From positions 64,001 to 128,000 of the forward strand of contig JAOUEV010000002.1 in NCBI GenBank assembly GCA_029858565.1: a stretch of 64,000 nucleotides of DNA, read 5' to 3'. Of the stretch, positions 42,883 to 64,000 are shown piece by piece. This DNA comes from Nitrospirota bacterium. Its GTDB lineage: Bacteria; Nitrospirota; UBA9217. A program made the position numbers and the translations under genes. Each line of letters begins with the position of its first letter. Position 1 is the first letter of the stretch. Below the pieces are notes generated by a model. The model worked only from the letters and a program-made list of their open reading frames with translations, did not search any database and was not told the DNA's origin.

Positions 42883-42891
42883 GCCGTCATC

Positions 42892-45060: not shown

Positions 45061-45073
45061 GACTTGTACTGAC

Positions 45074-45146
45074 CGCAGATCGCGGATCGAGCGGAAACGT
45101 TCACGTGGATGACACGGGAATCGGCGATCCGATATCCGGGATCTGC
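45074..45146. repeat. Degenerate heptamer-repeat inverted element
   Basis: CGCAGAT CGCGGAT CG ... ATCGGCG ATCCGAT ATCCGGG ATCTGC. Confidence 0.45.
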
Positions 45147-45177
45147 AGGCGGTAATTTTTGCTGAGGAGGTTGTATC

Positions 45178-45549
45178 TTGGATACTTTTTCCATAGTACT
45201 GATCGTGTTTTTCGGCGCATATGTTGCTATCAAGCTCCTGGGCTATCTGAGCAGGCTCGGGATCAAGCAGGTGACCGCGCGTCAGATCGATCAGATGAAG
45301 GGCATCATGCTCCTCGATGTGCGCTCGGACAAGGAGTTCAAACAGGGGCACATCCCGGGATCCATCCACATTCCCCTTGAAGAAGTGGGGAGCAAGGCAA
45401 AGAAGCTCCGGAAAGACAAGGAGCTTGTCGTGTACTGCCAGAGCGGGAACCGGAGTATCTGGGCGATCAAGCGGCTCATGGGGATGGGATTTACGAACCT
45501 TCATAATCTGAAGGGCGGCTATCATGCCTGGAAGCGCATCCATCGTTGA
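45178..45549 (+). CDS. Membrane-anchored rhodanese-like protein
   Basis: TTG start after AGGAGG; N-terminal TM; LDVRS..EF..GHIPG; YCQSGNRS; LKGG..AW. Confidence 0.88.
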   Translation: MDTFSIVLIVFFGAYVAIKLLGYLSRLGIKQVTARQIDQMKGIMLLDVRSDKEFKQGHIPGSIHIPLEEVGSKAKKLRKDKELVVYCQSGNRSIWAIKRLMGMGFTNLHNLKGGYHAWKRIHR

Positions 45550-46177: not shown

Positions 46178-46271
46178 ACGGCAAGCCGGAGGGTGGTCTT
46201 CCGTAGGTCGCACAGGTGGCGGGGAATGGAACCATAACCGTAGATCCGCTGAGCGTAGTCGCGAGGGGAAC

Positions 46272-46568
46272 ATGGCTGACAAGGGACTGAAGAAAGCGAT
46301 CATCATCGGCGCCGCTCTCGGCGCCGTTCTTACTCTGGGCGTGGCCCTTTCAATGGACTACTTCCTGTCGAGTTCTCTGCAGGGGACCTGGCGGGATGCT
46401 GCCGTGAAGGATGTGACCAAAATGTTCGGACCATCTTGCGGTCAGAACTGGTTCGCGGTCACCCTGGTCCTGGTGTTCGTCATGGCCTTTCTTGCCGGTT
46501 TCGGTGCGATACTCGGGACCGTGGGCGCCGTCATCATCAACCGGTTCTTTAAATTCCTCCTGAAATGA
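46272..46568 (+). CDS. Small two-TM hypothetical protein
   Basis: GAGGGG RBS; two hydrophobic helices. Confidence 0.75.
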   Translation: MADKGLKKAIIIGAALGAVLTLGVALSMDYFLSSSLQGTWRDAAVKDVTKMFGPSCGQNWFAVTLVLVFVMAFLAGFGAILGTVGAVIINRFFKFLLK

Positions 46569-46710
46569 TTATGATCCCGAAGCGGTTCACAGGCAGCGGG
46601 AGTACGTTTCCTCTCTGGTACGCAGGGACGCTGTCCGGATTTGTCTTTTTTTTCGACAGGGAAAGTGCGATAATTTTCCGATATCAGCCGCTCCATGACT
46701 AGGTCAGCCT

Positions 46711-47937
46711 ATGTTGTTCAATATCCTTAAACGCTCATTCCTGAACCAGAAGCGCGCGATGGCGGTCATGATCGTGTCCGTGGCCGTCGGGACCGCTATA
46801 GCAGCGTCCCTGCTCGCGCTATCCTTCGATATTTCATCAAAGGTCTCCAGGGAACTTCGTTCCTTTGGCGCGAATATCGTGGTCCAGCCCCGGATAACAG
46901 GATTGGCAGGCGTGAGCGGACAGAAACGCTATCTGCGCGAGGCCGACATTCCCAAGGCAAAGACCATCTTCTGGAGGCACAACATCCTCGGTGTTGCACC
47001 ACTGCTCGTTGTGCGTGATGAAAAGCAGAACGCCCAGGTGCTCGGGACCTGGTACCTCAGGACGATCGCCTTGCCGGGAGAAAAAAAAGGATTCGATACC
47101 GGCGCTTCTACGGTCATGCCATGGTGGTCTATAGAGGGGAAATGGCCAGCGGGGGACAGCGAAATCCTGGCGGGCATCGGCATTGCAGAAAAGAAGAACC
47201 TTAAGATCGGGGACCGCGTTGCCGTAGGAGGAAGGCAACTCAGGATATCGGGCGTCCTGAACGCCGGCGGGAGAGAAGATGACATGTTCGTCGGCGAGCT
47301 CGCGACGGTACAGCTCTTATACGGCCTCCCCGGCAGGATATCCCAGGTCGCGGTGAGCGCGCTGACCACGCCCATGGACGATTTTGCCTATAAGGACCCG
47401 GCGACCATGTCCCGGAAGGAATATGAGAAGTGGTACTGCACGGGGTATGTCACCTCGATCGCAAAGCAGCTCGAAGAGGTCTTCGCAGGCTCGGTTGCCC
47501 GTCCCATCTGGCCGGTCGCCGAGGCAGAGGGAAATGTGTTAAGCCGACTTGAGCTCCTGATCATACTGCTGACCGCAGTGTCGCTCCTTGCCGCAGCCCT
47601 GGGTATATCCACGACCATGATCATGAGCCTGCTTAAGCGGACCGAGGAGGTCGCGCTCATGAAAGGGCTCGGGGCGAACACGCTGCAGACGGTTACCGTG
47701 TTCCTTTCCGAGGCGCTCCTCATCGGCCTGGCCGGCGGCGCGGTCGGTTATCTTCTTTCCCTGGGCATATCAAGCTATCTCGGATATCAGGTCTTCGGCA
47801 CGGCGCTGGAGCAGAAGGGGATGCTTCTGCCGATCAGCATCGGCGTATCCGAGGTGATCTCGGTGCTCGGGGCCTACCTCCCGATCAGGCGTGCGCTTCG
47901 GATAAAACCAGCAATTGTGCTGAAGGGAGGCCAATAG
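46711..47937 (+). CDS. MacB/FtsX-type ABC permease (Fet-like)
   Basis: ELRSFGANI, EKWYCTGYVTSIA, R.EEVALMKGLGA, FLSEA, PAIVLKG. Confidence 0.88.
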   Translation: MLFNILKRSFLNQKRAMAVMIVSVAVGTAIAASLLALSFDISSKVSRELRSFGANIVVQPRITGLAGVSGQKRYLREADIPKAKTIFWRHNILGVAPLLVVRDEKQNAQVLGTWYLRTIALPGEKKGFDTGASTVMPWWSIEGKWPAGDSEILAGIGIAEKKNLKIGDRVAVGGRQLRISGVLNAGGREDDMFVGELATVQLLYGLPGRISQVAVSALTTPMDDFAYKDPATMSRKEYEKWYCTGYVTSIAKQLEEVFAGSVARPIWPVAEAEGNVLSRLELLIILLTAVSLLAAALGISTTMIMSLLKRTEEVALMKGLGANTLQTVTVFLSEALLIGLAGGAVGYLLSLGISSYLGYQVFGTALEQKGMLLPISIGVSEVISVLGAYLPIRRALRIKPAIVLKGGQ

Positions 47938-47974
47938 TCGATCTGCGGAAGCTTTACGCAAGATACTCTTCCTT

Positions 47975-49054
47975 ATGAATGCCTGGTTCAGATATTTCCT
48001 GACACGATCGATCTCTCAGCGGAGGGGGCGGTTCATACTGTCGTCATCGGCCGTGCTGCTGTCCGTCATGGTGGTGACCGCGCTGGTCACGGTCTCGCTG
48101 GGAGTGCGCGAAAAGATCGGCGCGGAGCTGAAGCGCTACGGCGCCAACATGATAGTGACACACGGGGAAGGACAGTTGATCCCGGGAGCTGTCGCACAGG
48201 AGGTTCGTGGTCTTTCTCCGGCGATCAAGGACGCAGCATCGCAGCTCTACGGCAGCGCAATGCTCCGGCAAACGGCCGTGGAGATCGTTGGGATCGAACC
48301 AGGGAAAATGGCCGGCTACCGGGTAGCTGGCTCCTTGCCGGCCGGCCCCTCCGAACTGATGGTCGGTGTCAATCTGCGCGAGGCCATCAAGGTCAAACAA
48401 GGAGGCACGATAGCATTTGACGGTCATTCCGGGGAGTTCACCATTTCGGCTTTTTTTGAAAAAGGGCCTGACGACGATTCCACGATCGTGCTGACCCTCG
48501 CAGGAGCGCAGAAACTGCTTGCCATGGATGGCGTGAGCGCTGTGCTCCTGAACGCGGATTCCGCCCGGCTGCTGGAGGTTGAGCGCCGGGTGCGTGAACG
48601 CTGGCCTTTTCTCGAGGTGAAGACCCTGAAACAGGTTGCTGTTGCCGAGGAGCGGATACTGGGCAGGATCCAGCTGCTCATGCTGCTGGTGACGGTGGTG
48701 GTGCTCTTTTCCTCCATGGTCGCCTTGGGAAGCACAATGGGCGCCAACGTGATTGAACGCATGGAGGAGATCGGATTGATGAAGGCCATCGGTGCGACCC
48801 GGGGCGACATCCGCAGTTTTTTCATGGCTGAGGCGGCCCTGGCCGGGCTCACTGGTTCGCTTGCGGGATACGGAGGCGGCGTTCTGGCTGCCGAGGCTGT
48901 TTCTCGCACAGCTTTCGGTTCCTTCGTTCCCTTGAACGTTCTTGTCATTCCCGGTGCGCTGGTCCTGGGGATGGTCATTGCCATAGCCGCAACCTATATC
49001 CCGGTACGAGGCGCCATGAAGGTAGTGCCAGCCAGGATACTGCGCGGCGAATAG
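47975..49054 (+). CDS. MacB/FtsX-type ABC permease
   Basis: ELKRYGANM, ERMEEIGLMKAIGA, PARILRGE. Confidence 0.88.
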   Translation: MNAWFRYFLTRSISQRRGRFILSSSAVLLSVMVVTALVTVSLGVREKIGAELKRYGANMIVTHGEGQLIPGAVAQEVRGLSPAIKDAASQLYGSAMLRQTAVEIVGIEPGKMAGYRVAGSLPAGPSELMVGVNLREAIKVKQGGTIAFDGHSGEFTISAFFEKGPDDDSTIVLTLAGAQKLLAMDGVSAVLLNADSARLLEVERRVRERWPFLEVKTLKQVAVAEERILGRIQLLMLLVTVVVLFSSMVALGSTMGANVIERMEEIGLMKAIGATRGDIRSFFMAEAALAGLTGSLAGYGGGVLAAEAVSRTAFGSFVPLNVLVIPGALVLGMVIAIAATYIPVRGAMKVVPARILRGE

Positions 49055-49191
49055 AGTGAAAGGTGAAGCTCCTTTCGCGGAATTAGGATTGCTGCGGGAT
49101 TTCGAGAGGATTATCCATGTTTCCCGCTCTTTTGTCAGTATTGAACAACCACCCCTGTTAACGGGCCGGAATCTTGTTGAGGATCGATACA

Positions 49192-49860
49192 ATGTCTTTT
49201 ATAACCATTGAGAAGGTGAGCAAGGAATACGCAACGACCCGCGCGCTGAATGGCGTGGATTGCACGATCGGATCGGGCGAGTGGGTCAACATCATGGGGC
49301 CGTCGGGGTCGGGAAAAAGCACGCTTCTGAACATCCTCGGGGGACTCGACAGGCCCACCGAGGGCATTGTTACCATCAACAGCACGGACATCAACAGACT
49401 GTCGGAGGATGAACTTGCACGCTTTCGGCGGGAGACGATCGGTTTCGTGTTCCAGCAATCGCACCTGATACCTTACCTCGATGCCACCGAGAACGTGATG
49501 CTTGCCCAGTATTTCCACAGCATCCCAGACCGCGGGGAGGCAGAAGAGGCGCTGAAGCGCGTTGGACTGGGCCACCGCCTCCGGCATCGGCCGGCCGAGC
49601 TCTCGGGCGGCGAGCAGCAGCGCGTCGGGATCGCCCGCGCGCTGATCAACAATCCCAACCTGCTGCTCGCTGACGAACCGACCGGCAACCTTGACCGTTC
49701 CAATACCAGGAACATCCTCGAACTGCTCAAAGAGCTTCACGCCCAGGAAAAGTTCACCGTCGTAGTAGTGACCCACGACCCCTTTGTGTCCCAATGGGCC
49801 CGTCGGGTGATCTCCATGGAGGACGGAAGGATCATCAGGGATGAGCCGGTTCGTTCTTGA
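49192..49860 (+). CDS. ABC transporter ATP-binding protein (LolD/MacB type)
   Basis: [30 protein letters not shown]. Confidence 0.93.
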
Positions 49861-51229
49861 AGCGCTGTTCATTGGAGCGAAAGAAGGCGTCAAGCTTTCT
49901 TTTTGCACTCTGCTGGTATTCTCGCTTCTGAGCGGTCGCGAGCGTCTTCCCCTGAAACGGTCCGTGATTGCCGGACTCCTTGTCGTGTTCCTTGCCTCTT
50001 TTCTCCTGCTTACCCTGCCGGTCACGTTCGAAATGCGCGAAATTATCGTTCGGATGATAGGGTATGTCTTTGGAATTTTCTTTTTTCTTTCCATTGGCGC
50101 GCTCTTTCACGAGTCAGGGACCGATATCATCGGCCCTTTCCGCAGCGTTGGCGGGAAAAGGGTGCTCCAGATCCCTATCCTGCTGGTCTTAACCATTGGT
50201 TATTTTGCGCCTGACATGGCCGGCTCTGCGCTGTTCATTGCAGACCTTGCATCCATGGCACAGGCGCCTATGCCGGTCTTTCTTGCTTCCGGGCTCGGGT
50301 TTGTCCTGTTCATTGCCGGGACCGCTGCCCTTGGCAGGAAGGTACAGCCTGTGTTCCCGCGTCTTTTTGGTTTGCCCCAGGTGCTGCTGACCCTGGCACT
50401 CATCAAACTGCTTGCCGGCGGGATACGGGGATTTGCCGAACTTACTCTCATCCCGGCGGTGCAGGCTGGTCTCATGAAACTGGTCCACGATGTCATTCAC
50501 CAGACCTTTGTCATGATCCTTGTGCCTGACCACCCCGTGCTTTCGACGACAACATGGAACTTTGTGGGTTTCTTGTTTCGGGAGACCGCGGGGCTTTGGT
50601 TGTCTCTGATCCTGCTGGTAACGCCGCTCGTCCTGTTCGTGATCAAACATTTCCGGGAGCCCCTTCGGTATCCCGGGAGCATTGATCGTCCGTCTCAAAG
50701 ACGCATGTTCATCAGGTCTATTCGCGATCAGCGGCTTCTCAAATCGCTTCCCGTGCTTTTCTTTTTAGCGGTAATCATCATGACCTGGTTCTCCCAGCAG
50801 GACGCGCCCGGTGTAAGCCTGTATCTACCGGACCCTAAACCTGTCGCTGCGGACGGAGATGCATTGAATATTCCCATCCAATCGCCGACAGAAGACCTTC
50901 GCGACGGCGCTATTCATAAATTTTCGCTCCTGATTCGTGACGAACAGGTCAGGTTACTGATCATGAAAAAGCCTGACGGGACGCTCACGGCATGCCTCGA
51001 TGCATGCGAAATATGCCCGCCCGATGGTTATGGCCAATCACGAGAACATGTTGTCTGCCTTTACTGTAAAACCCCCATCCCCTTTGATACGGTCGGGAAG
51101 CCCGGTGGATGCAATCCAATCCCCCTGCCAACTGTTGTGACGGACAAGGAAGTGCGGCTGACAATGAAGGATATCTCCGAAAAATGGGTCCTGGTGAAGT
51201 CCGGGGCATCCAAGACTACTGTAAAATGA
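49841..51229 (+). CDS. Polytopic membrane protein: FTR1-like N-terminus plus DUF2318 Cys-rich domain
   Basis: About 8 TM segments; KEGVK at the RExxE position; DACEIC...VCLYC...GGCNPIP. Confidence 0.8.
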   Translation: MSRFVLEALFIGAKEGVKLSFCTLLVFSLLSGRERLPLKRSVIAGLLVVFLASFLLLTLPVTFEMREIIVRMIGYVFGIFFFLSIGALFHESGTDIIGPFRSVGGKRVLQIPILLVLTIGYFAPDMAGSALFIADLASMAQAPMPVFLASGLGFVLFIAGTAALGRKVQPVFPRLFGLPQVLLTLALIKLLAGGIRGFAELTLIPAVQAGLMKLVHDVIHQTFVMILVPDHPVLSTTTWNFVGFLFRETAGLWLSLILLVTPLVLFVIKHFREPLRYPGSIDRPSQRRMFIRSIRDQRLLKSLPVLFFLAVIIMTWFSQQDAPGVSLYLPDPKPVAADGDALNIPIQSPTEDLRDGAIHKFSLLIRDEQVRLLIMKKPDGTLTACLDACEICPPDGYGQSREHVVCLYCKTPIPFDTVGKPGGCNPIPLPTVVTDKEVRLTMKDISEKWVLVKSGASKTTVK

Positions 51230-52224
51230 AATCGATTGCCGCCCGAATATATGCATTTCTGCGCTCTGCTGCTCTCACGGTCTGGCTTGTGGGATTGTTC
51301 CTGTTCTATTATCTCTCGATGGCCGTGTGGAGCAATGAAGCTTTTGGTATGTACATTGTCCATCTTTCTTCGAATAACCTGTTTCGTGGGTTTTATCTTT
51401 TATTCCTCTCCAATGTGGTTCTTCGTCTCATAGAGAGACTGCAACGCCTTTGGTCAACAAGGGCGCAATTCATTCTCCAATTGCCCTTGTTGGTGGGGCT
51501 TTTGCTGTTCCTGCCGGCCTTGTTCCTGAGCTTGAACATGAGAAAGACACTGCGAACTCCACCGGTTGGCATGGGAGACATCATCACTGTTCCCCACGGC
51601 ACGGAGAAGTATCAGATCCAGTCTGTTGAGCCTGCGCTCAAGAAACGCTCTCTCAGGAATGAAGGGGCCGCGGTCTTTGATTACGAACCGGGGCTCATGC
51701 TCCTGGATCCTCAGGGAAGAACGTACCGGGTCGGCGCTTTTCCTCCCAGTCCTGTCGGCTCAACCTATATGCATGTGCTGACATTCGGGATCGGCCCTGG
51801 TGTGGAACTTAAAAAGGGGAGAGAAGTGGTATTTCGCGGATATATAGCGTTGCAGTTGACGCCATTTGGAAATGTCGACGTTTTTGACAATTCTGATTTG
51901 CCCTATAAGTTCTATTTGAGCATAATTCCCAATAGTACAATAAGAAAAGGAAAGGAATCCGCGAATACGTATGACCTTGAGAAACCGCGGTATAATGTCA
52001 CTGTCGTAAAGGAAGAACAGACCATTTTAAACGGGGAAACAGATTCTTCGATCAGAATTGATGAAAACCTCACTCTTTCGTTCTTTACGCCATCGGACTG
52101 GGTCATAGTTGAAGTTGTTCAAGATAGGTTTTTGCCATGGTTTGTTCTTTCGATATGCTTAATCTGCGTGGGAATTGTGCCCTTCCTCTTCTCAATGGTG
52201 ATGTCTAAACTAAGGGCGAAGTGA
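51226..52224 (+). CDS. ResB/CcsB-like cytochrome c biogenesis membrane protein (divergent)
   Basis: Three N-terminal TM segments (FLRS..L, LFLSN), large soluble domain, C-terminal V.QD...TM; ATGA-coupled to the DUF2318 gene. Confidence 0.55.
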   Translation: MKSIAARIYAFLRSAALTVWLVGLFLFYYLSMAVWSNEAFGMYIVHLSSNNLFRGFYLLFLSNVVLRLIERLQRLWSTRAQFILQLPLLVGLLLFLPALFLSLNMRKTLRTPPVGMGDIITVPHGTEKYQIQSVEPALKKRSLRNEGAAVFDYEPGLMLLDPQGRTYRVGAFPPSPVGSTYMHVLTFGIGPGVELKKGREVVFRGYIALQLTPFGNVDVFDNSDLPYKFYLSIIPNSTIRKGKESANTYDLEKPRYNVTVVKEEQTILNGETDSSIRIDENLTLSFFTPSDWVIVEVVQDRFLPWFVLSICLICVGIVPFLFSMVMSKLRAK

Positions 52225-52469
52225 ACGGCTTTTTATTTCGTTTGAAATGCGCAATAGTTGTCGTACATAAGTCCCTATCGGACGGCAGATTAGGATGAAC
52301 TTGGCTAGTTATTGTTGAGGAACAAAATTATTAGGTGTTTTTTTTATTAAATTTCATGGCATTATAAAAAAATTGCTTTGAGCATTATAAGTCTAGCATG
52401 TTTGAAAACCAACAAGGCTTTTGAGCGATAACACTCAAAATAAGTCATTGGTGTCTTGTAATATAAAGC

Positions 52470-52516
52470 TAATATATTGATATTTAAAGAATGCCTATGC
52501 TGGTATATGAATTGCA
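52470..52516 (+). promoter_or_regulatory. Sigma54 promoter with IHF site upstream of the cytochrome cluster
   Basis: TGGTATATGAATTGCA (52501-52516, GG-N10-GC). Minus-strand TATCAATATATTA (52470-52482) matches WATCAANNNNTTR. Lies in a very AT-rich ~365-bp spacer. Confidence 0.7.
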
Positions 52517-52590
52517 AAGTATATTAATTGAAAAAGTAATGTATATAAGCTTGGAAATCTATTAAACATATTGATTTTTAAGGAGAAGCG

Positions 52591-53391
52591 ATGGCCACTT
52601 GCAATAGATTCACGAAAACCAATCCCTTTATCTCATTGCTTGCGCTTGGCTTGGTTTGTGTATGTTTTGCTGCTCCGGTTGATGCGCTGACAATCGTCGG
52701 TAGCAAGCATGATTTTACATCGACTGCCTCGGGCACGAACAATTTCGCGGATAATTTCTTTGTGCCGGATCCGGCAACGGGATTCCCAACGCCGATCGAT
52801 CAGGTCTGCGTTTTCTGTCATACGCCTCACCATGCAGCGCTCGGCGCAGCCGCCCCTCTGTGGAACAGGACCTCGTCGCCTCCTGATGCGACGTATACAT
52901 TCAAAATGTATACAAGCGAGTCCTTCACGTATGGTCCTGTTGGCGGTCCCACGGGCATCAGCGCCTTGTGCATGAGCTGCCATGATGGTGTATCGTCTAT
53001 CGCGGTGAGCACGCTTCTGAACCCCCCGGGAGACGCGACGCCCGATCAGGTCACTACATCGATGTCCTCCAATGGTGCAATAGGTGCGGTGTATAATGGT
53101 GATCCTCTTACGAATGGATGGGGCGCGAACCTTGGTAATATTGACCCCTTGTTCCCGGGAACCAAGATCATAGACCTGAGCAACGATCATCCGATTTCAT
53201 TCGTCTATCCGACCAGTGCTTCGGGCATCTATCCTTCTACTTCGATAGATACTCGTCTCCGTCTCTTTGGTGCTAGCAAGGACATGGTCGAGTGTGCGAC
53301 CTGTCATTTGGTGCACGACAACCAGTACGAGCCTTTCCTGGCAATGCCGAACAACGGCAGCCAGATGTGTCTATCCTGTCATCAAAAATAG
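52591..53391 (+). CDS. OmcE-like tetraheme c-type cytochrome
   Basis: Signal peptide; SKHDF, QVCVFCHTPH, PLWNR, LCMSCHDG, DLSNDHPI, VECATCHLVHDN, PFL, GSQMCLSCHQK. Four CxxCH motifs. Confidence 0.85.
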   Translation: MATCNRFTKTNPFISLLALGLVCVCFAAPVDALTIVGSKHDFTSTASGTNNFADNFFVPDPATGFPTPIDQVCVFCHTPHHAALGAAAPLWNRTSSPPDATYTFKMYTSESFTYGPVGGPTGISALCMSCHDGVSSIAVSTLLNPPGDATPDQVTTSMSSNGAIGAVYNGDPLTNGWGANLGNIDPLFPGTKIIDLSNDHPISFVYPTSASGIYPSTSIDTRLRLFGASKDMVECATCHLVHDNQYEPFLAMPNNGSQMCLSCHQK

Positions 53392-53472
53392 ATCCGGAAC
53401 TGCAGCCATCTGTAGTCGGAAATATTTATGAAGAATTATTTAAGAAGAGTGAACGCGGCCTCGGAGGTGGGT

Positions 53473-56214
53473 ATGAAAACGGTGAAGATTTCGATCATTC
53501 TGATGATTGCCATCGTGGCAGTGGCCAGTGCTGCCTTCGCGGCCCCGGTCCGGATCGGGACCCTGGAGCAGAATATCTCGGACCCTGTGCGGGTGGCTTT
53601 GGATGCTCAGGGGAATATATATGTGACCGAGGCACAGCGCGACCTCGTCCTGGTTTATACCAGTAAAGGTCAGCATAAGACTGGCCTTTCGGTTCCTCGA
53701 CCGCTCGGTGTTGCGGTTGACGGGAACGGAACGATTTATGTAAGTTCTGGAAATCAGAGGACCAAAAACCCGGTGTATGTATTCACCCCGGACTTTGTGA
53801 AAGCCGGATGCCTGGGTGGGGCATCATGCGCGGAATTTGTAAAGCCCATCGATGTGGCTGTTGATGGAAAAGGCAATGTGTATGTCGTAGACAATGACCC
53901 TGATTATAGTGTGGTCAAGGTGTATGACGGTGCAGGCTCACTTATCCGTACGATTGCCGGCAGTGGCGCATCGCGGTTGAATAAACCCATGAGTGTTGCC
54001 ATCGACGATACAGCCGGGGAAATCATAATTTCCGATCAGCCGGATGTGATTGTTGCTGGTCAAAAGGCGATTGGCGCACGGATCCAGGCTTTTGATGGAT
54101 CTGGAATTGCTGTGCGGACGATTGGTCAGTATGGGATCGAGGTCGGTCAGTTCAAAGAAGCTACAGATATTGCCATTGATGCCAAGGGGCAGCTGTATGT
54201 TACTGACGGCGCTTTGGGTGTCACTAATATTATCAATGCCTCCGACGGGAACATCGTCGGTATTCTTTATGACGCCGGCAAGCCTGGTTATAACCCTAAC
54301 GGTGTTGTGGTAAGCAAAAATGGACTTGCGTATGTGGTCATGCAAAAAGGCGAAGGCAGCAAGGGCAGGATTGACATTTACGCTCTTGAAGGATATGTGA
54401 CGATGGCGGCTGCGCCTGCAGCGCTGATGTTCGAGGCTCGGCAGTTCTCGGGCAATCCTTCCGCTCAGACGGTATCGGTAAGCAACAGCGGCAGCGGCAC
54501 TCTCAACTGGACGGCATCGAAGAGCCAGTCGTGGATCGTGCTGGGGCAGGATGCAGGTACGGCGGGACCGAATGGATCTTCCGGTCTTCCCGTTGGTATA
54601 GACATCTCCGCGTTGAAGGCGGGAATTTATACAGGCACTGTTGCGGTCGTATCGGATTTCGGCCAGACGGAGTCAGTCGGTGTTTCTGTGAATGTGCTGA
54701 ATCCGCTGATCCTGAATATCAGCAAGAGCACGATGACATTTACTGCTAAGAAGGGCAAAACAGCGGCTGCCCAGTCTCTTGCAACAGGGATCGACAACGT
54801 CACCACGGCAACGGCGTGGAGCGCGAAGTCCGATTCAACGTGGCTTTCTGTAACACCGGCATCGGGAACTGCGACTGCCGCGTCTGCGGTTGCTGGTGCA
54901 AACGTAACGATCAACACCGCTGGCATGGGTGTTGGAACCTATAAGGGTGCTATCACGGTATCTGCCCCCGGAGCTATCGGAGATGGCAGTGCTGTTATGG
55001 TTATGCTTACGATAACCCCGACCACGAAGATCACCGTAAATACGAACAATGAAAATGCCAAGTTCTCGGTAAGCGGCCCGTCGACATACAATGGTAGCGG
55101 CTCATCATGGAGTGTGGAAGATGTTCCTGCGGGCGATTATAAGGTCAACTTTGAGCCTGTTGCCGGCTATCGCAAACCGAAGGCAGCGATGGGGGCTGTC
55201 CCGGCGGATGGCGAGGTTTCCTTCTCGGGAAATTATACGTCCTTCGCTGATATTGCTGCGCGGCGGAATATCCTTGTGGCCGGTGCTCTTGGCGTAAAAG
55301 CGCGTGATTCTGAGGTCAGTGTGTATAGCAATACGGGTGCTCTTTCGCAGGCAATTGATCTGTCAGCGAATTACGGTGCCAGCGTGGCGGTCGCCGATGT
55401 TGACAATGACGGCGCAGAAGAGATTATTGTTAGTGCCGCAGAAAAGGGGAGCAATCCCGCGACGGTTACGGTTATGAAAGCTGACAGGACCGTACTGAAC
55501 AGCTTCGTTCCTTTTGCGAATGCCAATGCTGTTCGGGTCGCGGCAGGAGACATGGATGGAAATGGGTCTGCGGAAATTGTCGTCATCCCAGCGCCTACCA
55601 GAAACGGCGCTGCCGGGACCGCAGCAGTGTATACCTACGACAGTGCGAGCGCGAAGATGATCGAAGTCGCGGCAGTGACCATGTATAAGAAGACGTCAAT
55701 AGTTGACGTTGCTGTCGCGGATATTAATGGTGATGGAAAAGCGGAACTTTTAACACTAGCCGCGTTTGAAGGAAAATCAGCAGGAATGGTAAAAGCCTGG
55801 AGCGTGAGCGCTGCAAAGGGTGGTTGGTCAGCAGCCTTGATCAACGATATCACCATGAACGGTGAAATGATGGGCGCTGCAGTGGCCGGTGGCGATGTCG
55901 ATGGAGACGGTGTAAGTGAGATTATTGTCGGTTCCGCGGCAGATGCGGGTGGTATGCTGACCATCATTAAAGGCGACGGAACTCAGACGAAGGTGAAGGT
56001 CTTTGGCAGGAAGGATGTGGCTGGTATGACGCTGGCCGTTGCTGACCTCGATGGCGACGGTAAGGCTGATCTCGTTGCGGCGCCTGTGCTTGAGAGTGGG
56101 AATGCGAAGAAGGATGGTGCGATCGAGGTCCTGAATTCGAATGGCACCTTGATGTTCTCGATCGATGTCAAGGCGGATGGTGCGAATGTTGCCATCGGTG
56201 AACTTGGTCTCTAA
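53473..56214 (+). CDS. Exported NHL-repeat/BACON/FG-GAP protein
   Basis: Signal peptide; NHL repeats (P..VAVD..G.IYV); two BACON-like units (NWTASKSQSW, AWSAKSDSTW); five DxDxDG repeats. Confidence 0.85.
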   Translation: MKTVKISIILMIAIVAVASAAFAAPVRIGTLEQNISDPVRVALDAQGNIYVTEAQRDLVLVYTSKGQHKTGLSVPRPLGVAVDGNGTIYVSSGNQRTKNPVYVFTPDFVKAGCLGGASCAEFVKPIDVAVDGKGNVYVVDNDPDYSVVKVYDGAGSLIRTIAGSGASRLNKPMSVAIDDTAGEIIISDQPDVIVAGQKAIGARIQAFDGSGIAVRTIGQYGIEVGQFKEATDIAIDAKGQLYVTDGALGVTNIINASDGNIVGILYDAGKPGYNPNGVVVSKNGLAYVVMQKGEGSKGRIDIYALEGYVTMAAAPAALMFEARQFSGNPSAQTVSVSNSGSGTLNWTASKSQSWIVLGQDAGTAGPNGSSGLPVGIDISALKAGIYTGTVAVVSDFGQTESVGVSVNVLNPLILNISKSTMTFTAKKGKTAAAQSLATGIDNVTTATAWSAKSDSTWLSVTPASGTATAASAVAGANVTINTAGMGVGTYKGAITVSAPGAIGDGSAVMVMLTITPTTKITVNTNNENAKFSVSGPSTYNGSGSSWSVEDVPAGDYKVNFEPVAGYRKPKAAMGAVPADGEVSFSGNYTSFADIAARRNILVAGALGVKARDSEVSVYSNTGALSQAIDLSANYGASVAVADVDNDGAEEIIVSAAEKGSNPATVTVMKADRTVLNSFVPFANANAVRVAAGDMDGNGSAEIVVIPAPTRNGAAGTAAVYTYDSASAKMIEVAAVTMYKKTSIVDVAVADINGDGKAELLTLAAFEGKSAGMVKAWSVSAAKGGWSAALINDITMNGEMMGAAVAGGDVDGDGVSEIIVGSAADAGGMLTIIKGDGTQTKVKVFGRKDVAGMTLAVADLDGDGKADLVAAPVLESGNAKKDGAIEVLNSNGTLMFSIDVKADGANVAIGELGL

Positions 56215-56292
56215 TTCATGATCGTGACCAGCATGAACATGAATGGAATTAAAAGATTGATACGGCGTACTCTGCAAGAAGGAGCGGTGACT

Positions 56293-59200
56293 ATGAAGAA
56301 ATCTACTCTACTTACGATTTCAATTCTGATTATGCTGTTCGGCATGCTGATTGCCGTGCGGGACGTCGCGGCACTCGATGCCCCGCATAACGCGAACGAC
56401 GTATCTCGGTCGATCACCTGCTCCACGTGCCACGTTTCTCCATTGGGACCGACCCCGACGTGGAAAACAATCCCGACGACCACGGACAATACCTATACAA
56501 ACAATCTTTGTACAAGCTGTCACGCGAGCGGCAAGCTCACGACCAGCAAGTATGAGGATATTAAGACCCACTCTGCGGCGAACACGGGAAGCACCCGGTG
56601 GGGCGGTGGCTGGACGGTTGAGTGTCGTGTCTGCCATCATGCCCATAACCAGGCGCAGCAGACCACGTTCTATTCAGATGCTAATAATAATGTGCTGACC
56701 GGTACGGTGGCGGCGCTGACGTCGTCGGTATCTGCGACCATGTCCACGCTTACTGCGTCCGCGGGGTCGATGGGAACCGATGGTTACGTTGGTTACCTTC
56801 TTATCCCGAATACCGCATATCCTACGATCATGTATCGTGTTATAGCCAATGACGCGACGAAGTTTACCGTGAAAGGTGCTATTAACCTGGCTCGTACGGC
56901 AGTGGGAAAGACCTGGGCACTGCGCTACGGCAAAATGGTGAAAACGCAAATTGCCTATACGAACCCGACTTCGGTGAATGCCTCGGTCAAGTTCTACAAT
57001 AATGCAGGCAACAATTCCTTTGCAGAAACCGCGAGCCCATCAACATCCCTTTGCATGGTCTGTCATACCCAGACCAAGCATTTCAAGAATGACGGAACAT
57101 TTGAGACTGCAGGTCATCCGGCAGCTGTCGGAACGGCCTGCACTTCCTGCCATAAACATAATACGGGCTTCAAGGCAAGCGGATGTAATGGCTGTCACGG
57201 CCAGAGCGGATCGACCGGCGCGCCTCTTGTTGCCGGTGATCTTGTCTCGCCAGCAACCGGCCACGCCGAAGGCGCACATCTGCGGCATGCGGTGACCCTG
57301 TCTCTGAGTTGTGCTGTCTGTCACGCTGGAAATACCATGCCTGCGCTCGACAGCGAGATAACCATGTCGTTCAGCGACGCGGCAGCAGGTGGAGCATATC
57401 AGGGCACTGCTCTCAACGCTCCTTACACCTATAGCGCCAATGTCACCCTGGGCGGCACGCAAACCTGTTCCTCTTTATATTGCCATAGCTCGGGTCAGAG
57501 TGCCACGGGTGGTTCGCTTGCCGGCGGAGACTACAAGTCAGTGAACTGGACAGGAGCCGGCCTGAACTGCGGCAGCTGCCACGTTGATATGGATGCAAGC
57601 GCATCGGCAACTGGCAGCCATATTAAGCACGCACAGGATAAGGCCATTGCTTGTGCGACCTGCCATGATGGATACACAGAAACGTCAACGGCCGCGGCAA
57701 CGCACGCAAATGCCTCGATCAATCTGAGCTTCAGCGGTAGGGCTGCTGGCTCGACATACTCCCAGGGAAACTCCCATGCTGTGCAGAACGGATACGGCCA
57801 GTGTTCAACGAACGATTGCCATAGCACCGGCCAGGGTTCCGATGGCAGTTCGTCCGGCATTACCTATGCGTCTCCGACGTGGGGCGGAACGGTGAATTGC
57901 AGCTCCTGCCACAAGAACATGGATGCTGATGCGACCGCACCGGGCAGCCATGTGAAGCACGCGCAGAGCGCGGCGATTGCCTGCGCCACCTGTCACAACG
58001 GATACACCGAGACCACCGCAGCCGTGGCAACCCATGACGACGGCACGGTGGACATGAGCTTCAGCGGTCCGGGAGACGGCACGTTCTACACCGGCGGTAC
58101 GACGAGCGGCAACTACGCGCTCGGCGGCGGTTACGGTTCTTGCTACACCAGCTCCTGCCACAGCTCGGGCCAGTCCGCCACGGGTACGGCCTCGCCGCTG
58201 ACCTATGGTTCACCGGTATGGGGCGGTACCTTGGACTGCGGTTCCTGCCACACGAACATGGATACTGATGCGACCGCACCGGGCAGCCACGTGAAGCATG
58301 CCCAGAGCGCGGCCATCGCTTGCGCCTCCTGTCACAGCGGTTACACTGAGACCACGGTTGCGGTTGCAACGCATAATAACTCGACAGTCAACGTGACGAT
58401 GGCGACCGGCTTCTACACCGGCGGCACAACGAGCGGCAACAACGCGCTCGGCGGCGGCTATGGTTCCTGCTACACCAGCTCCTGCCACAGCTCGGGCCAG
58501 TCAGCCACGGGTACGGCCTCGCCGCTGACCTATGGTTCTCCGGCATGGGGAGGTACACTGGACTGCGGCTCCTGCCATAAGAACATGGATACTGATGCGA
58601 CCGCACCGGGCAGCCACGTGAAGCATACCCAGAGCGCGGCCATCGCTTGCGCAACCTGTCACAACGGTTACACCGAGACCTCGGTTGCCGCGGCATCGCA
58701 TAACAACGGCACGGTGGATATGAGCTTCAGCGGGACGGGTGCCGGGACGTTCTACAGCGGCGGCACAGTGAGCGGCGACAACGCGCTCGGCGGCGGCTAC
58801 GGTTCCTGCTACACCAGCTCCTGCCACAGCTCAGGCCAGTCAGCGACGGGTACGGCATCACCGTTGACCTACGGCTCTCCTGCGTGGGGCGGAGCGCTGG
58901 ATTGCGGCTCCTGCCACAAGAACATGGATACGGATGGAACTGCGCCGGGAAGCCACGTTGGCCATGCACAGACAGCGGCGATTGCGTGCGCAACCTGCCA
59001 CAGCGGGTACACCGAGACGACGGTTGCGGCTGCAACGCATAATAACTCGACAGTCAACGTGACGATGTCGACCGGCTTCTACAGCGGCGGCACGGTTTCG
59101 GGTGACAATGCGCTGGGCGGCGGTTATGGAACCTGTTTCACAACGAACTGCCATGGCTCATCCTCACCCGTCTGGGGCACGAACACCACGAATGCTTCCT

Positions 59201-60174
59201 GTACGAAGTGCCATGGTGTTTCCGGCGCAACCCCTGCGCAGTATACCGCGGATAACAATATAGCGGCGCCTGGATATGTTTCTGTCGCTCCGGTCGGTAC
59301 CGGTCGCGCAACATCTGGTGCGACAGCTGCGACAGATCCGAAGGTCGGAGCTCATAACGCACACCTTAAGGGCGTGAGCAACTATTCGGATCCCATTGCC
59401 TGCAGCGCCTGCCACAATACGTCATCAGGGCACATGGATGGTTCCGGCACACTGACATTCAGCGGTTTGTCTACATCGAACGGCGCCGCTGCAAATTATA
59501 GCGCGCCGAATTGTTCAACAACCTACTGTCATTTCGGTAAATCGATCAATTTGTACTCGCCGGCAGTTTCGAGCGCTACAGTGACCTGGAATGATACGGC
59601 TTACCTGAGCGGCACACCGAGCATCGGCGGAGACTGCGCGAAGTGCCATCTCTCACCGCCTTCGGCAACAGGGACCCATGCAGGCTACAGCACCTTCACA
59701 GACTGCAACACCTGTCATCCTCATGTGAGCACAGACGGTACGTTCAACAACAAATCGCTGCATATCAACGGCGTAGTCGAAGCCGCAAGCGGTTGCGACG
59801 GCTGCCACGCATATCCGCCTGCAATAGGCGACGGCAAGGCGTATAAGGGTTCCGCGCTGCTCGGTAAAGGAGCGCATACATCCCATGTCAACTATCTCCT
59901 CCTGAGGACCGGATTGACCCTTAGCGCTAAGGGTGATACTTATACCGGTGCAACGGTTGCGGCGATCTGCGGCGTTTGTCACAACACGTCAGCCGATGCC
60001 TTCCATAAGAATGGCAATGATGTCCGTGACCTCCTGATCCCATCGTCTTACCTCTTTGGTACGGGGACGCCGACATATAACGGGAATCCCGCGACTACGA
60101 CCAATAAGAACTGCTCGAATGTCAGCTGCCATTTCAATGTAACTCCGCTGTGGCAGCAGACCGCGGGTCAGTAA
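56293..60174 (+). CDS. Giant multiheme c-type cytochrome with CxxxxCH/CxxCH repeats
   Basis: Signal peptide; manual count of 23 CxxCH plus 8 CX4CH; GAAGGAG RBS. Confidence 0.92.
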   Translation: MKKSTLLTISILIMLFGMLIAVRDVAALDAPHNANDVSRSITCSTCHVSPLGPTPTWKTIPTTTDNTYTNNLCTSCHASGKLTTSKYEDIKTHSAANTGSTRWGGGWTVECRVCHHAHNQAQQTTFYSDANNNVLTGTVAALTSSVSATMSTLTASAGSMGTDGYVGYLLIPNTAYPTIMYRVIANDATKFTVKGAINLARTAVGKTWALRYGKMVKTQIAYTNPTSVNASVKFYNNAGNNSFAETASPSTSLCMVCHTQTKHFKNDGTFETAGHPAAVGTACTSCHKHNTGFKASGCNGCHGQSGSTGAPLVAGDLVSPATGHAEGAHLRHAVTLSLSCAVCHAGNTMPALDSEITMSFSDAAAGGAYQGTALNAPYTYSANVTLGGTQTCSSLYCHSSGQSATGGSLAGGDYKSVNWTGAGLNCGSCHVDMDASASATGSHIKHAQDKAIACATCHDGYTETSTAAATHANASINLSFSGRAAGSTYSQGNSHAVQNGYGQCSTNDCHSTGQGSDGSSSGITYASPTWGGTVNCSSCHKNMDADATAPGSHVKHAQSAAIACATCHNGYTETTAAVATHDDGTVDMSFSGPGDGTFYTGGTTSGNYALGGGYGSCYTSSCHSSGQSATGTASPLTYGSPVWGGTLDCGSCHTNMDTDATAPGSHVKHAQSAAIACASCHSGYTETTVAVATHNNSTVNVTMATGFYTGGTTSGNNALGGGYGSCYTSSCHSSGQSATGTASPLTYGSPAWGGTLDCGSCHKNMDTDATAPGSHVKHTQSAAIACATCHNGYTETSVAAASHNNGTVDMSFSGTGAGTFYSGGTVSGDNALGGGYGSCYTSSCHSSGQSATGTASPLTYGSPAWGGALDCGSCHKNMDTDGTAPGSHVGHAQTAAIACATCHSGYTETTVAAATHNNSTVNVTMSTGFYSGGTVSGDNALGGGYGTCFTTNCHGSSSPVWGTNTTNASCTKCHGVSGATPAQYTADNNIAAPGYVSVAPVGTGRATSGATAATDPKVGAHNAHLKGVSNYSDPIACSACHNTSSGHMDGSGTLTFSGLSTSNGAAANYSAPNCSTTYCHFGKSINLYSPAVSSATVTWNDTAYLSGTPSIGGDCAKCHLSPPSATGTHAGYSTFTDCNTCHPHVSTDGTFNNKSLHINGVVEAASGCDGCHAYPPAIGDGKAYKGSALLGKGAHTSHVNYLLLRTGLTLSAKGDTYTGATVAAICGVCHNTSADAFHKNGNDVRDLLIPSSYLFGTGTPTYNGNPATTTNKNCSNVSCHFNVTPLWQQTAGQ
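57568..59154 (+). repeat. Intragenic tandem repeats of 327-339 bp, each a three-heme module
   Basis: Units start at 57568, 57898, 58237, 58564 and 58903 (spacings 330, 339, 327, 339 bp); the later units are highly similar at DNA level. Confidence 0.9.
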
Positions 60175-60308: not shown

Positions 60309-62852
60309 ATGATGAAGAAAGCTTGTAACGATAGCGCGGTAAGCCGGCTCACATGGCTGGGGCTTGCGGTAGTCCTGATCATGCTGATCTCCGCATTCGT
60401 TGCTGTACCTCAGGCAACAGCCGGAACGTATACGGTAGATACGTGCGGCGATTGCCACGCATACTCCACGGGAACGTTCACGGACGGTTCGGCCCGGAAT
60501 AATCCGGCCGGCGCCTTCCCGGGCTCGCATCAACAGCATGTGACGACCTACCAGATGGCCTGCACGGTCTGTCACATCAACAACGGAGCTAATTTTGCCC
60601 ATCGGAACGGCAATGTTGATATAAATGCCTCGATCAGCGGAGGCACATACAGCAAAGGTTCATTCTCCCAGGTTAATACGACATCTCTGGGTCGGTGCAC
60701 TAACGTCTCTTGCCATAGCAACGGAACCCCGCTGAACGGTACAGCAACATTCGCAACAGCGACCTGGGGTTCTCCGGCAACAGGTGCTTGCGGAACCTGC
60801 CACGGCGTCCTGGCTTCCAGCGCTCCGACCTCAACGCATCACAGCAAACACGTGGGAGCTGCTGCGGGATATCAAAACGCCTGCGGTTGGTGCCATAGCA
60901 GCACGGTGAACATGACAGCGAATTCAACCGTTCAGGCGACGGTCACTTCAACTACGCTGCATGTCAACGGAATCAAGAACGTCTCCTTTGAAACCACCAC
61001 GAACGCCGGGGCGAACGCCTACGGAAGCGGGCAGGCCTATAGCTGCACCAACCTCTACTGTCATAGCCAGGGGAACACGTTCACATCACCCTATACAGCG
61101 CCGAACACGACAGCGCTCTGGACATTGGCTGCAGGTTCGCTGAACTGCAACAGCTGCCATGGTTCGACCGTAGCAACAACCACTCGCGGTAATGGCAAGC
61201 CTGAGTACGCCAACGGCACGCCGAAGAAGAACAGCCATGCGGGCCATTTCCCGTGGAACACGCTCCAGTCCTGCCAGATCTGCCATTCGGCAACGACCAC
61301 GGACGGGGTGAGCGTTACGAACAAAGCGAACCATGTGAAGAAGTCCTACAACGTGGGTTCCTACACGGGAGGCGGTGCCTGGAACACCTTGGCAAACTTC
61401 ACCTATACCTATAATGCCAATGGCAGCACCTGTAATACCAACCAGTGCCATGCTGGGCTGAACGCACAGTGGGGCTCGACAGGAGCCGGCTCCGGCAGCG
61501 AATGGAACTGCATTACCTGCCACTCCAGCTCGTTCAAGAAGTTCCTCGGCACGGGAACGATCCGGCAGGTTGTCGGTACGACCAACGCCGCTGATTTCAA
61601 CATGTCAACGATCGGGAACGGCGCAGGTTCGCGTCACCTGTACGGTGCTTCGACAATCGTGAAATGGGACTGCATCATCTGTCACGAGGAAGGTCAGGCA
61701 ACGGGCGCTCCTGGAAGGGTTGACTGGCAGAACCATAATGACTTGGGCGGCTTGATCCATCTGCGGAACGTGGACACGATCGATCCTGCGAACTCGGGCT
61801 GGGCGATTAACAACAAGTCCTGGACGACGACCGATTATCAGAGTATGGACGAGTTCTGCGTCTCTTGCCATGATTCCAACGGGGCAAGCGCGATCGCGGT
61901 GAATGCTGCGAACAACGGACTCTTCACCGGCACTGCTGCCTGGAACACCTATCGTGCAGGCTGGAAATCAATGGCAGGAACTTTCCCCGGCAGGGCAGCC
62001 CTGGCACCGTTCAACTCCACGGACTGGCGTTCTGGTTATCTGGTTGCATCCACCTCGTCAGTAGGCGCCGGCGAGGGCAGAGCAAAGATCACTGACGTGA
62101 AGACCCAATTCTACGCAGGTACTGCAGGCAACTGGGCGACAACGAACTACAACGGCAATCCGTCGCAGCACGCGGTGCTCGGTACCCGGTACGGCCGGGC
62201 CTGGAACACCTGGACCGCCGCAGCCTGGTCGAGCTACTTCATGAAGAAGTCTCGTGCGAACATCAACGCCATGCGTGAGACCGCGCTACTCTCATGCGCT
62301 GACTGTCACGTGCTCGATGCTCCAGGTGTGGGCGGCAATGCTCATAGCGGTACAGTGAAATACATGCTGTCTACAGTCACTAGTGATGGCATCTGCACAA
62401 AGTGTCATTCGACAACTGCCTACGCTGCGGCGAGCGCTATATCCCGGTGGAATCACAGCTACTCAAGAGGCGGTTACAATGCCTATGGTCTTTCCAACGC
62501 AGCAGGTACGGGTTCTCAGCTCGCCTGTATGATGTGCCATGCTGGCTGGCAGATAGAGTCAACGGTCTCGAGACAGAGGAGCTACGGCGGCATCCATGGA
62601 TCCTGGACGACCTTCTATCCCATGAGCACGGTAGGAAGTGGAAACCTGACGACCTACCGGTTCTTCCCCGGGACCTGGAGAAAGCATTCATATAGTGCTG
62701 ATAACCAGTGGGGCTCCATGACAGCTTCGACCTGTTACTTCGGGGCTACAACCGATAATAGCGGATTTGCGAGCTGTACGTCACATGGAAGCGCGACCGG
62801 CAGAACTGGAACGACGTACACGCCGACGTACACGCGTCCGGTCAAGTACTAA
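60309..62852 (+). CDS. Multiheme c-type cytochrome with CxxxxCH/CxxCH repeats
   Basis: Signal peptide ending PQATA; manual count of 12 CxxCH plus 3 CX4CH; GAGGT RBS. Confidence 0.92.
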   Translation: MMKKACNDSAVSRLTWLGLAVVLIMLISAFVAVPQATAGTYTVDTCGDCHAYSTGTFTDGSARNNPAGAFPGSHQQHVTTYQMACTVCHINNGANFAHRNGNVDINASISGGTYSKGSFSQVNTTSLGRCTNVSCHSNGTPLNGTATFATATWGSPATGACGTCHGVLASSAPTSTHHSKHVGAAAGYQNACGWCHSSTVNMTANSTVQATVTSTTLHVNGIKNVSFETTTNAGANAYGSGQAYSCTNLYCHSQGNTFTSPYTAPNTTALWTLAAGSLNCNSCHGSTVATTTRGNGKPEYANGTPKKNSHAGHFPWNTLQSCQICHSATTTDGVSVTNKANHVKKSYNVGSYTGGGAWNTLANFTYTYNANGSTCNTNQCHAGLNAQWGSTGAGSGSEWNCITCHSSSFKKFLGTGTIRQVVGTTNAADFNMSTIGNGAGSRHLYGASTIVKWDCIICHEEGQATGAPGRVDWQNHNDLGGLIHLRNVDTIDPANSGWAINNKSWTTTDYQSMDEFCVSCHDSNGASAIAVNAANNGLFTGTAAWNTYRAGWKSMAGTFPGRAALAPFNSTDWRSGYLVASTSSVGAGEGRAKITDVKTQFYAGTAGNWATTNYNGNPSQHAVLGTRYGRAWNTWTAAAWSSYFMKKSRANINAMRETALLSCADCHVLDAPGVGGNAHSGTVKYMLSTVTSDGICTKCHSTTAYAAASAISRWNHSYSRGGYNAYGLSNAAGTGSQLACMMCHAGWQIESTVSRQRSYGGIHGSWTTFYPMSTVGSGNLTTYRFFPGTWRKHSYSADNQWGSMTASTCYFGATTDNSGFASCTSHGSATGRTGTTYTPTYTRPVKY

Positions 62853-63536: not shown

Positions 63537-63998
63537 CTACGGCAATGACGGTGAAGAAAGCAGGTAACTGTAGAGAAAAGCAGGGACCATGCGTCCGGTG
63601 ACGAATGGATACAGATAAAGCCCCCAGACTGCAGTGAGGCAAAAGAGAATACTAAAGACCTTTCGGGATCGGCCAGAGCCCATGGTCAAAGATGCAAGCG
63701 AGTACGCGATCAGTAGATAGGCAAATGGCAGCACCGCAAAGGCTGAATAGAGGAACACCGGACGCTTCACCAGGATGAACTGTAAGTACGATGAAGCAAA
63801 GAGCAGCAAGACCAGGGGGAGGCTCCGCTCTCTGCGTTGATACGCATAATACAGCCCATAGACCGCAGCAGGTATGGTCAGGAGCCAGATCGGCGGATTG
63901 CTCATGAAGGTGAAGAACTTTCCCCACCCGGCATTCACGAAGATCGGTTCGCCGTGTATCAGCGGCTTGACGAACCAGTGCCAGGGAACTGATGGCGA
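63537..63998 (-). CDS. PMT-family (GT-C) protein glycosyltransferase, C-terminal part (5'-truncated by window edge)
   Basis: Frame open to the edge: SPSVPWHW...SNPPIW...RPVFLYS...LPF...YLYP, the PMT C-terminal 4TM pattern. Confidence 0.72.
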   Translation of the reverse strand, partial: SPSVPWHWFVKPLIHGEPIFVNAGWGKFFTFMSNPPIWLLTIPAAVYGLYYAYQRRERSLPLVLLLFASSYLQFILVKRPVFLYSAFAVLPFAYLLIAYSLASLTMGSGRSRKVFSILFCLTAVWGLYLYPFVTGRMVPAFLYSYLLSSPSLP

Positions 63999-64000
63999 AG

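Follow-up and report, generated by a model that had tools for sequence, protein, structure and literature searches.

OmcE-like genes are widespread in phyla other than those from which OmcE filaments have been solved, and this provokes a question: do they make wires? Homologues of OmcE outside Desulfuromonadia, Nitrospirota included, are already in print, and the only two OmcE filaments solved both come from Desulfuromonadia (PMC13712944). We examined a window of 64,000 nucleotides of contig JAOUEV010000002.1, from an uncultured Nitrospirota bacterium. Among sequencing runs, one DNA run contains the whole stretch and may be the source sample, six others contain small shares of it, and no RNA run was listed. 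At positions 52591-53391 of its forward strand lies an intact open reading frame (ORF) with an ATG start that encodes a protein of 266 amino acids (aa), hereafter the omcE-like protein. It stands first in a four-gene module, followed by a secreted protein with two fused propellers and two very large multiheme cytochromes (Table 1). No porin was recognised next to this module, and a paralogue linked to a putative porin lies elsewhere in the genome; these properties make the locus a well-delimited test case.

Table 1. Features of the omcE-like locus, by position in the window
Feature	Position	Strand	Basis or remark
332-aa membrane protein, possibly short ResB-like	51226..52224	+	directly upstream of the omcE-like gene
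Leader, intergenic, AT-rich, 366 bp; presumably holds the promoter of the omcE-like operon	52225..52590	+	
omcE-like gene, tetraheme c-type cytochrome precursor P0001	52591..53391	+	ORF, 7tfs_A/9yuq_N matches, Pfam, AF2, fold
Predicted Sec signal peptide, residues 1-32	52591..52686	+	read from sequence: basic N-terminus, hydrophobic core, AxA-type site, without lipobox
H40 codon, SKHD motif, N-terminal-arm histidine	52708..52710	+	invariant in homologues
Insertion 1, residues 56-68, FFVPDPATGFPTP	52756..52794	+	clade-specific; modelled beta-hairpin
Heme-1 motif C73-V-F-C76-H77 and distal-ligand H80	52807..52830	+	C73, C76, H77, H80 invariant (29/29, 90/90)
H81 codon, non-conserved extra histidine	52831-52833	+	G, N, Q or A at position 81 in most homologues
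Heme-2 motif C127-M-S-C130-H131	52969..52983	+	invariant in homologues
Insertion 2, residues 170-190, GDPLTNGWGANLGNIDPLFPG	53098..53160	+	clade-specific; conserved G176, W177, N180, G182
H200 codon, DLSNDHP motif, distal heme ligand	53188..53190	+	D199, H200, P201 invariant
Heme-3 motif C235-A-T-C238-H239, distal H242, heme-4 motif C260-L-S-C263-H264	53293..53382	+	all invariant
928-aa secreted protein: NHL beta-propeller, two BACON-like Ig domains, FG-GAP beta-propeller	53428..56214	+	Pfam
1318-aa multiheme cytochrome, 23 CxxCH and 8 CxxxxCH motifs, seven TIGR01904 repeats	56218..60174	+	
~846-aa multiheme cytochrome, 12 CxxCH and 3 CxxxxCH motifs	60312..62852	+	ORF opens at 60150
PMT/GT39-type glycosyltransferase, 3' part, runs past the window end	63537..64000	-	Pfam PMT, PMT_2 on the full gene (L001); opens the downstream glycosylation region

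The translation of the omcE-like gene carries an ordered series of motifs: SKHD (H40), CVFCHTPH (C73-H80), PLWNR, CMSCHDG (C127-H131), DLSNDHP (H200), ECATCHLVHDN (C235-H242), PFL and GSQMCLSCH (C260-H264). The protein thus has four CxxCH motifs (C73, C127, C235, C260), and it contains nine histidines in total. An initial annotation, made from the DNA alone, had given this order as that of Geobacter sulfurreducens OmcE (GSU0618, 7TFS). This was correct, since the phmmer alignment to 7tfs_A carries the same motifs (KHD, CHTPH, LWN, SCHDG, DLSNDHP, CHxVHD, PFL, CH.K) in the same order. When all PDB chains were searched with phmmer, 7tfs_A was returned with E=1.1e-22 (query residues 33-266 on chain residues 24-232) and 9yuq_N with E=3.5e-19; every other chain had an E of at least 0.2. 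We take 9yuq to be the OmcE bundle of D. soudanensis WTL; the assignment is our own, from what PMC13712944 describes and not from a PDB code. With that protein, too, the omcE-like protein shares the family (E=3.5e-19), the eight ligand positions and surface loops that vary between lineages. Judged by sequence, the motif match to OmcE is far beyond chance. Pfam and NCBIfam, both scanned with the protein, hold no OmcE-specific model; the sole family above the cut-off was the doubled-CXXCH domain Paired_CXXCH_1 (PF09699), at residues 234-266 (E=7.1e-9).

According to PMC13712944, OmcE homologues carry “four CxxCH plus four other histidines”. The ligand set of the omcE-like protein matches this signature, with H40, H80, H200 and H242 as the four others. 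H40, H200, H242 and the four CxxCH motifs were invariant in all three sets of homologues that we aligned (29/29, 121/121 and 90/90, the last being stand-alone homologues). H80 was invariant in the 29- and 90-member sets and nearly so in the 121-row alignment, and W91, N92 and D199 were likewise invariant in 29/29 and 90/90. The suggestion that the extra histidines could be distal ligands agrees with the retention of all four across the family. Loss of the histidine that is donated to the neighbouring subunit in OmcE can be ruled out, because all four distal positions are retained, whichever of them is the donor.

The predicted structure points to the same family. A model of the protein was built with AlphaFold2 (AF2) on 121 sequences, with a predicted local-distance difference test (pLDDT) value of 78.5, and its superposition on the OmcE chain gave the same fold. 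In Foldseek, 7TFS was the sole significant match in the PDB (E=1.3e-7, prob 1.00, template-modelling (TM) scores of 0.43/0.52; next E=4.5). VIA-align placed model residues 39-265 on chain residues 30-231 of 7TFS (176/202 residues, 39% identity, root-mean-square deviation 4.2 A) with Z=7.9; the tool itself rates such a value, just under 8, as middling, but the match spans nearly the whole chain. The layout of the N-terminus is also that of G. sulfurreducens OmcE: behind the signal peptide comes a short arm that bears the first histidine. The model has a helix at residues 12-26, in the signal-peptide region, and cleavage is predicted after V-D-A32, which would leave L33 as the first mature residue and H40 as the eighth. 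Sequence, modelled fold and the retention of all eight axial-ligand positions together support membership of the OmcE family.

This family is large. Among 2591 candidates, 1523 proteins belonged to it at E<=1e-3, and relatives are encoded at no fewer than 639 genome loci and at least 582 metagenome loci, in Acidobacteriota, Planctomycetota, Verrucomicrobiota, Pseudomonadota, Nitrospirota and others. A metagenome scan with the single protein as query returned nothing; with alignment A2 as query it returned 80 loci. The closest named homologue of the omcE-like cytochrome comes from a Nitrospirota metagenome-assembled genome (MAG). Within the same order, 30 of 64 genomes had a family match at E<=1e-10, and an orthologue was present in twelve genomes other than the one studied here, at 44-56% identity. 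We inferred a tree of 75 rows with IQ-TREE (LG+C20; support by the SH-like approximate likelihood-ratio test, SH-aLRT). Compared with the rows used for FastTree, 28 distant ones from the other half of that tree were dropped, four of these were brought back as an outgroup, and nine same-order orthologues were added. The omcE-like protein fell in a 16-row clade (support 99) within a 22-row clade (97) that also takes in L053, L116, L006, L008, L120 and L160. The 22-row clade is one of many branches of a polytomy, beside a Geobacter-type (96) and a Desulfuromonas-type (99) clade.

Two insertions distinguish this clade. Relative to Geobacter OmcE, the omcE-like protein has ~14 and ~22 extra residues in two conserved places. 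BLASTP opposes a 14-residue gap in the Geobacter orthologue to insertion 1. The segment from H40 to C73 measures 33 residues, as against 12-21 in nine OmcE genes that adjoin a Geobacter-type barrel, and the segment from H131 to H200 measures 69, as against 37-49 in the same nine. The additional loops described in the initial annotation are therefore real; they are common to the clade and not peculiar to this protein. Across 40 clade sequences, little or no variation is seen at F52, G64, I69, G162, G165, Y168, G176, W177, N180 and G182. The model of insertion 1 has strands at residues 56-59 and 66-68, with pLDDT values of 89-91 over residues 51-70; in the region of insertion 2 (residues 161-200) the values are 67-80. 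Because of the conserved residues and the confidently modelled hairpin of the first, we regard the insertions as structured, selected elements and not as floppy loops.

The genes downstream of the cytochrome are conserved along with it. The propeller gene starts 36 nt 3' of the omcE-like gene. At the N-terminus of its product no lipobox was seen, and PMC13712944 describes propeller lipoproteins. The propeller fusion lies directly 3' of the orthologue at seven other loci (L081-L086, L160) and in four genomes (G015, G041, G050, G019); at L017 the propeller gene lies just 5' of the orthologue, on the opposite strand. The full order of OmcE-like gene, fused propeller and giant cytochrome recurs at L085, L086 and L160, at L081-L084 as far as their short contigs reach, and in 4/4 same-order genomes examined (G015, G041, G050, G019). 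More generally, an NHL propeller is encoded within 3 kb of 137 of 159 family loci, and of 66 of the 73 whose flanks extend for 3 kb or more in either direction. For the ~846-aa cytochrome, position 60312 was chosen as the start because a signal-like segment comes after it. The 31 heme-binding motifs of the 1318-aa cytochrome are arranged as seven TIGR01904 CxxxxCH/CxxCH units, of which the central ones repeat with a period of ~110 residues and are highly alike.

Comparison with the published clusters shows a partial likeness: an adjacent propeller, two multiheme cytochromes, an upstream ResB-like candidate, and GT39, TPR and radical-SAM genes downstream. In a Geobacter sp. MAG (L028) the order is purD, resB, ccsB, two cytochrome genes, NHL propeller, omcE, a gene for an 806-aa protein, and a glycosyltransferase gene; the adjacent NHL propeller, the multiheme cytochromes and the downstream glycosylation genes are in common with our locus. 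The partners differ in scale. The propeller protein is a 928-aa NHL/BACON/FG-GAP fusion here and has ~380 aa in Geobacter, and the partner cytochromes have 1318 and ~846 aa (~31 and ~15 heme motifs), whereas those of the Geobacter sp. have 334 and 328 aa. Furthermore, an adjacent barrel of the 806-aa type was not found here, and the omcE-like protein is not sister to the Geobacter proteins in the IQ-TREE analysis. The minimal cluster of D. soudanensis comprises two cytochromes, two propeller lipoproteins, OmcE and a barrel, without glycosylation genes (PMC13712944); here, in contrast, no barrel was recognised and a glycosylation region is present. Geobacter-type clusters are followed by GT2, GT4 and GT39 genes, in freshwater Geobacter glycosylation genes come after omcE, and glycosyltransferase, TPR and sugar-modification genes after omcE form an optional freshwater or subsurface pattern (PMC13712944). 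The region downstream of the omcE-like operon, which bears GT39 and TPR genes, echoes this pattern. Within 14 kb, on the strand opposite to the operon, it encodes the GT39/PMT glycosyltransferase, two B12-binding radical-SAM proteins, a flavin amine oxidase, an SGNH hydrolase and a TPR protein (L001:1537-13929).

Does the omcE-like protein form a filament? On balance, we consider it somewhat probable that it is an exported bis-histidine (bis-His) tetraheme cytochrome, encoded by the first gene of an electron-transfer module, that polymerises like OmcE. The precursor would be exported by Sec, and all four hemes would be bis-His-ligated by the histidines of the four CxxCH motifs together with H40, H80, H200 and H242. 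The gene heads a conserved module, probably for extracellular electron transfer, with the fused double propeller and the two giant cytochromes as partners. Having passed beyond the periplasm, the subunits would polymerise head to tail outside the cell, by analogy with the OmcE proteins of G. sulfurreducens and D. soudanensis. Each subunit would lend a histidine, in all likelihood H40, to a heme of its neighbour, which would make the hemes a continuous, insulated chain, and the two clade-specific insertions would decorate or widen the filament. In OmcE, according to a review, the second histidine of heme 2 comes from the adjacent subunit (PMC12203936). We infer that H40 would be the donor because the arm that bears it at the N-terminus is short and invariant (I35-F42 are invariant or nearly so in the clade) and because its counterpart in 7TFS is residue 31, the second that is modelled in that chain. 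In favour of the filament, both solved filament types belong to the same polytomy as the omcE-like clade. A complex prediction with two copies of residues 33-266 and 4/8 hemes scored 0.09, against a mark of 0.42, and carries no weight either way.

A number of observations weigh against polymerisation, beginning with the distance from the proven filament subunits, to which identity is 30-39% (30% by Foldseek, 34% by BLASTP, 39% by VIA). The BLASTP alignment, made with the OmcE orthologue of the Geobacter sp. MAG, contains 24% gaps, and that orthologue scores 215 bits against 7TFS where the omcE-like protein scores 84. Sister placement to Geobacter OmcE in the FastTree analysis (support 87) vanished under IQ-TREE LG+C20 and was rejected. 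With these identities, these bit scores and a polytomy in the better tree, the sequences indicate a distant relation to Geobacter OmcE, and the word “close” in the initial annotation overstated it. Moreover, a paralogue in the same genome, encoded beside a putative porin on contig C131, matches the filament subunits equally or better (87 bits against 7TFS and 83 against 9YUQ, versus 84 and 73 for the omcE-like protein). Petersen et al. (PMC13712944) take a nearby large outer-membrane barrel plus a propeller as the mark of nanowire-capable homologues, and a scan of ORFs from 31.5 to 62.9 kb of the window and over the 20 kb beyond it turned up no gene recognisable as that of a large beta-barrel. 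A search with the 806-aa barrel of Geobacter returned no homologue in the genome (100% complete, 0.5% contamination); homologues of that barrel occur at nine of the 159 family loci. Barrels diverge fast, and a divergent one may lie elsewhere in the genome. Finally, the tetraheme module is often the N-terminus of a longer cytochrome, so that its presence alone proves no filament. The 159 loci comprise 78 four-heme forms, 50 eleven-heme forms with the module at the N-terminus and 16 five-heme forms, counts that include some ORFs cut by contig ends. Five-heme OmcE-like proteins are also noted in PMC13712944. At the N-terminus, the five-heme and the 10-11-heme forms share the tetraheme module and its KHD histidine with the omcE-like protein; unlike them, the latter stands alone and ends in CH-Q-K as OmcE does, without an extra heme or a C-terminal extension. 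Of the initial designation “OmcE-type nanowire subunit”, then, the first part holds by sequence, fold and ligands, and the second is inferred, with no adjacent porin gene found and with the module so often present in proteins of 10-11 hemes.

The paralogue just mentioned belongs to a second OmcE-family module (G000:C131:19823-25212; L169:4823-10212), which encodes a 222-aa tetraheme cytochrome, a 384-aa NHL propeller, a SurA-like peptidyl-prolyl isomerase and a 635-aa protein, and is without extra cytochromes. The 635-aa protein begins with a signal peptide and ends in Phe. In the Atlas it falls in an outer-membrane barrel grouping (feature score 0.98), with TM scores of 0.54-0.56 to MtrB/PioB-type clusters; it is a putative outer-membrane beta-barrel. 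This module fits the published signature of OmcE, propeller and porin better than the locus at 52591-53391 does. Identity between the omcE-like protein and the C131 paralogue is 42%, over residues 16-167 only. In a genome of the same family (G015), a barrel-linked module lies ~9 kb from a module of the omcE-like type (L183/L184; G015:C8:399485-420000). That genome shares with window positions 40904-53391 a backbone of LysM, NtrY-like kinase and Ogg genes; in the window genome, an operon of ABC, FtrD-like and 332-aa protein genes is inserted between Ogg and the omcE-like gene, and a different contig carries the barrel module. In each of two further genomes (G013 and G014), two family genes lie 17-21 kb apart. 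The genome also holds a third family member (G000:C106:3846-7046; L170), a 692-aa protein with 10 CxxCH motifs and an N-terminal OmcE-like module, with an NHL propeller gene 5' of it. A 680-aa ORF downstream of the omcE-like operon (L001:13603-15642) was considered as a barrel and rejected as a low-complexity antisense frame.

The main alternative is a protein that does not polymerise at all. In such a case a monomer would be docked on the NHL/FG-GAP propeller, passing electrons to or from the giant cytochromes in a periplasmic or cell-surface complex, and all eight histidines would ligate hemes of their own chain. Eight ligands for four hemes suit a monomer as well as a polymer. The near-constant company of an NHL propeller in this family, which extends to the fused 10-11-heme forms such as the C106 gene of this genome, agrees with a docked subunit, as does the cluster in which no porin gene was found; for D. 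ferrophilus it has been suggested that NHL propellers stabilise cytochrome complexes of the outer membrane (PMC5815863). The pairing is, however, no argument against filaments, because the canonical nanowire clusters carry an NHL propeller too. Against the monomer stands the fact that only two members of the family have been characterised by experiment, 7TFS and the D. soudanensis bundle, and both form filaments; in addition, the short N-terminal arm with H40 is invariant, as would be expected of a donated ligand. We give a docked monomer a fair chance, but a lesser one than the filament.

A filament cap or anchor is another role that the histidine count brings to mind. Petersen et al. (PMC13712944) have proposed nine histidines with four hemes as the composition of a filament anchor. 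The omcE-like protein has nine in total, with H81 next to H80, and the C131 paralogue, a second stand-alone tetraheme protein beside a putative porin, could supply the filament that it would terminate. Yet the extra histidine is not conserved: most homologues have G, N, Q or A at position 81, and the close clade relatives shown all have G. Following directly on a ligating histidine, H81 is also poorly placed to stand in for the N-terminal arm. The C131 paralogue and the omcE-like protein are only distantly related, and the omcE-like clade keeps a conserved operon of its own. We consider such a role very improbable, and H81, judging from the alignments, is probably incidental as a ninth histidine.

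Returning to the filament, what the analysis adds to the published record is, on the sequences, a separate and well-supported clade with two conserved insertions, a distinct conserved operon with a fused double propeller and giant cytochromes in which no adjacent porin was found, and a second module in the same genome that is linked to a putative porin. No description of the architecture of omcE-like gene, fused propeller and giant cytochromes was found in full-text searches of the literature, although the supplements of PMC13712944, which this search did not cover, may list such loci. A more far-reaching proposal, which we regard as unlikely to hold as a whole, is that the clade represents a distinct class of OmcE-type nanowire, not yet described and so far seen in this bacterium's order and in metagenome contigs. 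Its filaments would bear two structured insertions, would rely on the fused double propeller for assembly or anchoring instead of on an adjacent porin, and would be wired directly to the cytochromes of ~31 and ~15 motifs. They would probably be glycosylated by the GT39-rich region, and a porin would be supplied in trans by the simpler module of OmcE, NHL, SurA and barrel genes. The OmcE of D. soudanensis WTL forms anti-parallel nanowire bundles, and the loops at the bundle interface differ between lineages (mBio 2026, PMC13712944). The two paralogues of this genome, side by side, could show which genomic signature predicts filaments and whether the insertions alter the surface or the bundling. 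If the omcE-like protein is instead soluble or bound in a complex, it would caution against calling OmcE homologues nanowires from sequence alone.

Upstream of the cytochrome gene, an AAGGAG ribosome-binding site lies at 52580-52585, 5 nt 5' of the ATG, and the GC content falls to 0.47 across 52001-54000. The promoter is left unplaced, because a consensus scan of 52225-52590 gave no sigma-70-like site on the + strand; a sigma-54 promoter, considered by eye, was ruled out by an unfit GG-GC spacing. The gene of the 332-aa membrane protein is translationally coupled to the FtrD-like gene, with an overlap of 4 bases between its ATG and the stop of the latter, and this protein is kept upstream of the orthologue at L086, L120 and L081. 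It had no match in Pfam or NCBIfam, and BLASTP gave no significant match to Geobacter ResB (E=0.28). By its Atlas features, 25 of 30 matches fell in a set with a cluster that has PF05140 ResB on 29% of its members (score 0.94); as a lead only, the protein may be a short relative of ResB.

Divergence within the genus was also compared. Same-genus orthologues of the omcE-like cytochrome are 50-55% identical, and in the same-genus genome G041 the propeller has 42% and the giant cytochrome 37% identity. TrpB from the window has many matches at 86-95% identity; among the matches listed, at least 120, four carry an organism name, three of them Nitrospirota MAGs and one a Betaproteobacteria MAG. Because these same-genus identities are low beside those of TrpB, the whole module seems to be evolving unusually fast; a fast divergence of the cytochrome and its neighbours fits surface-exposed proteins.

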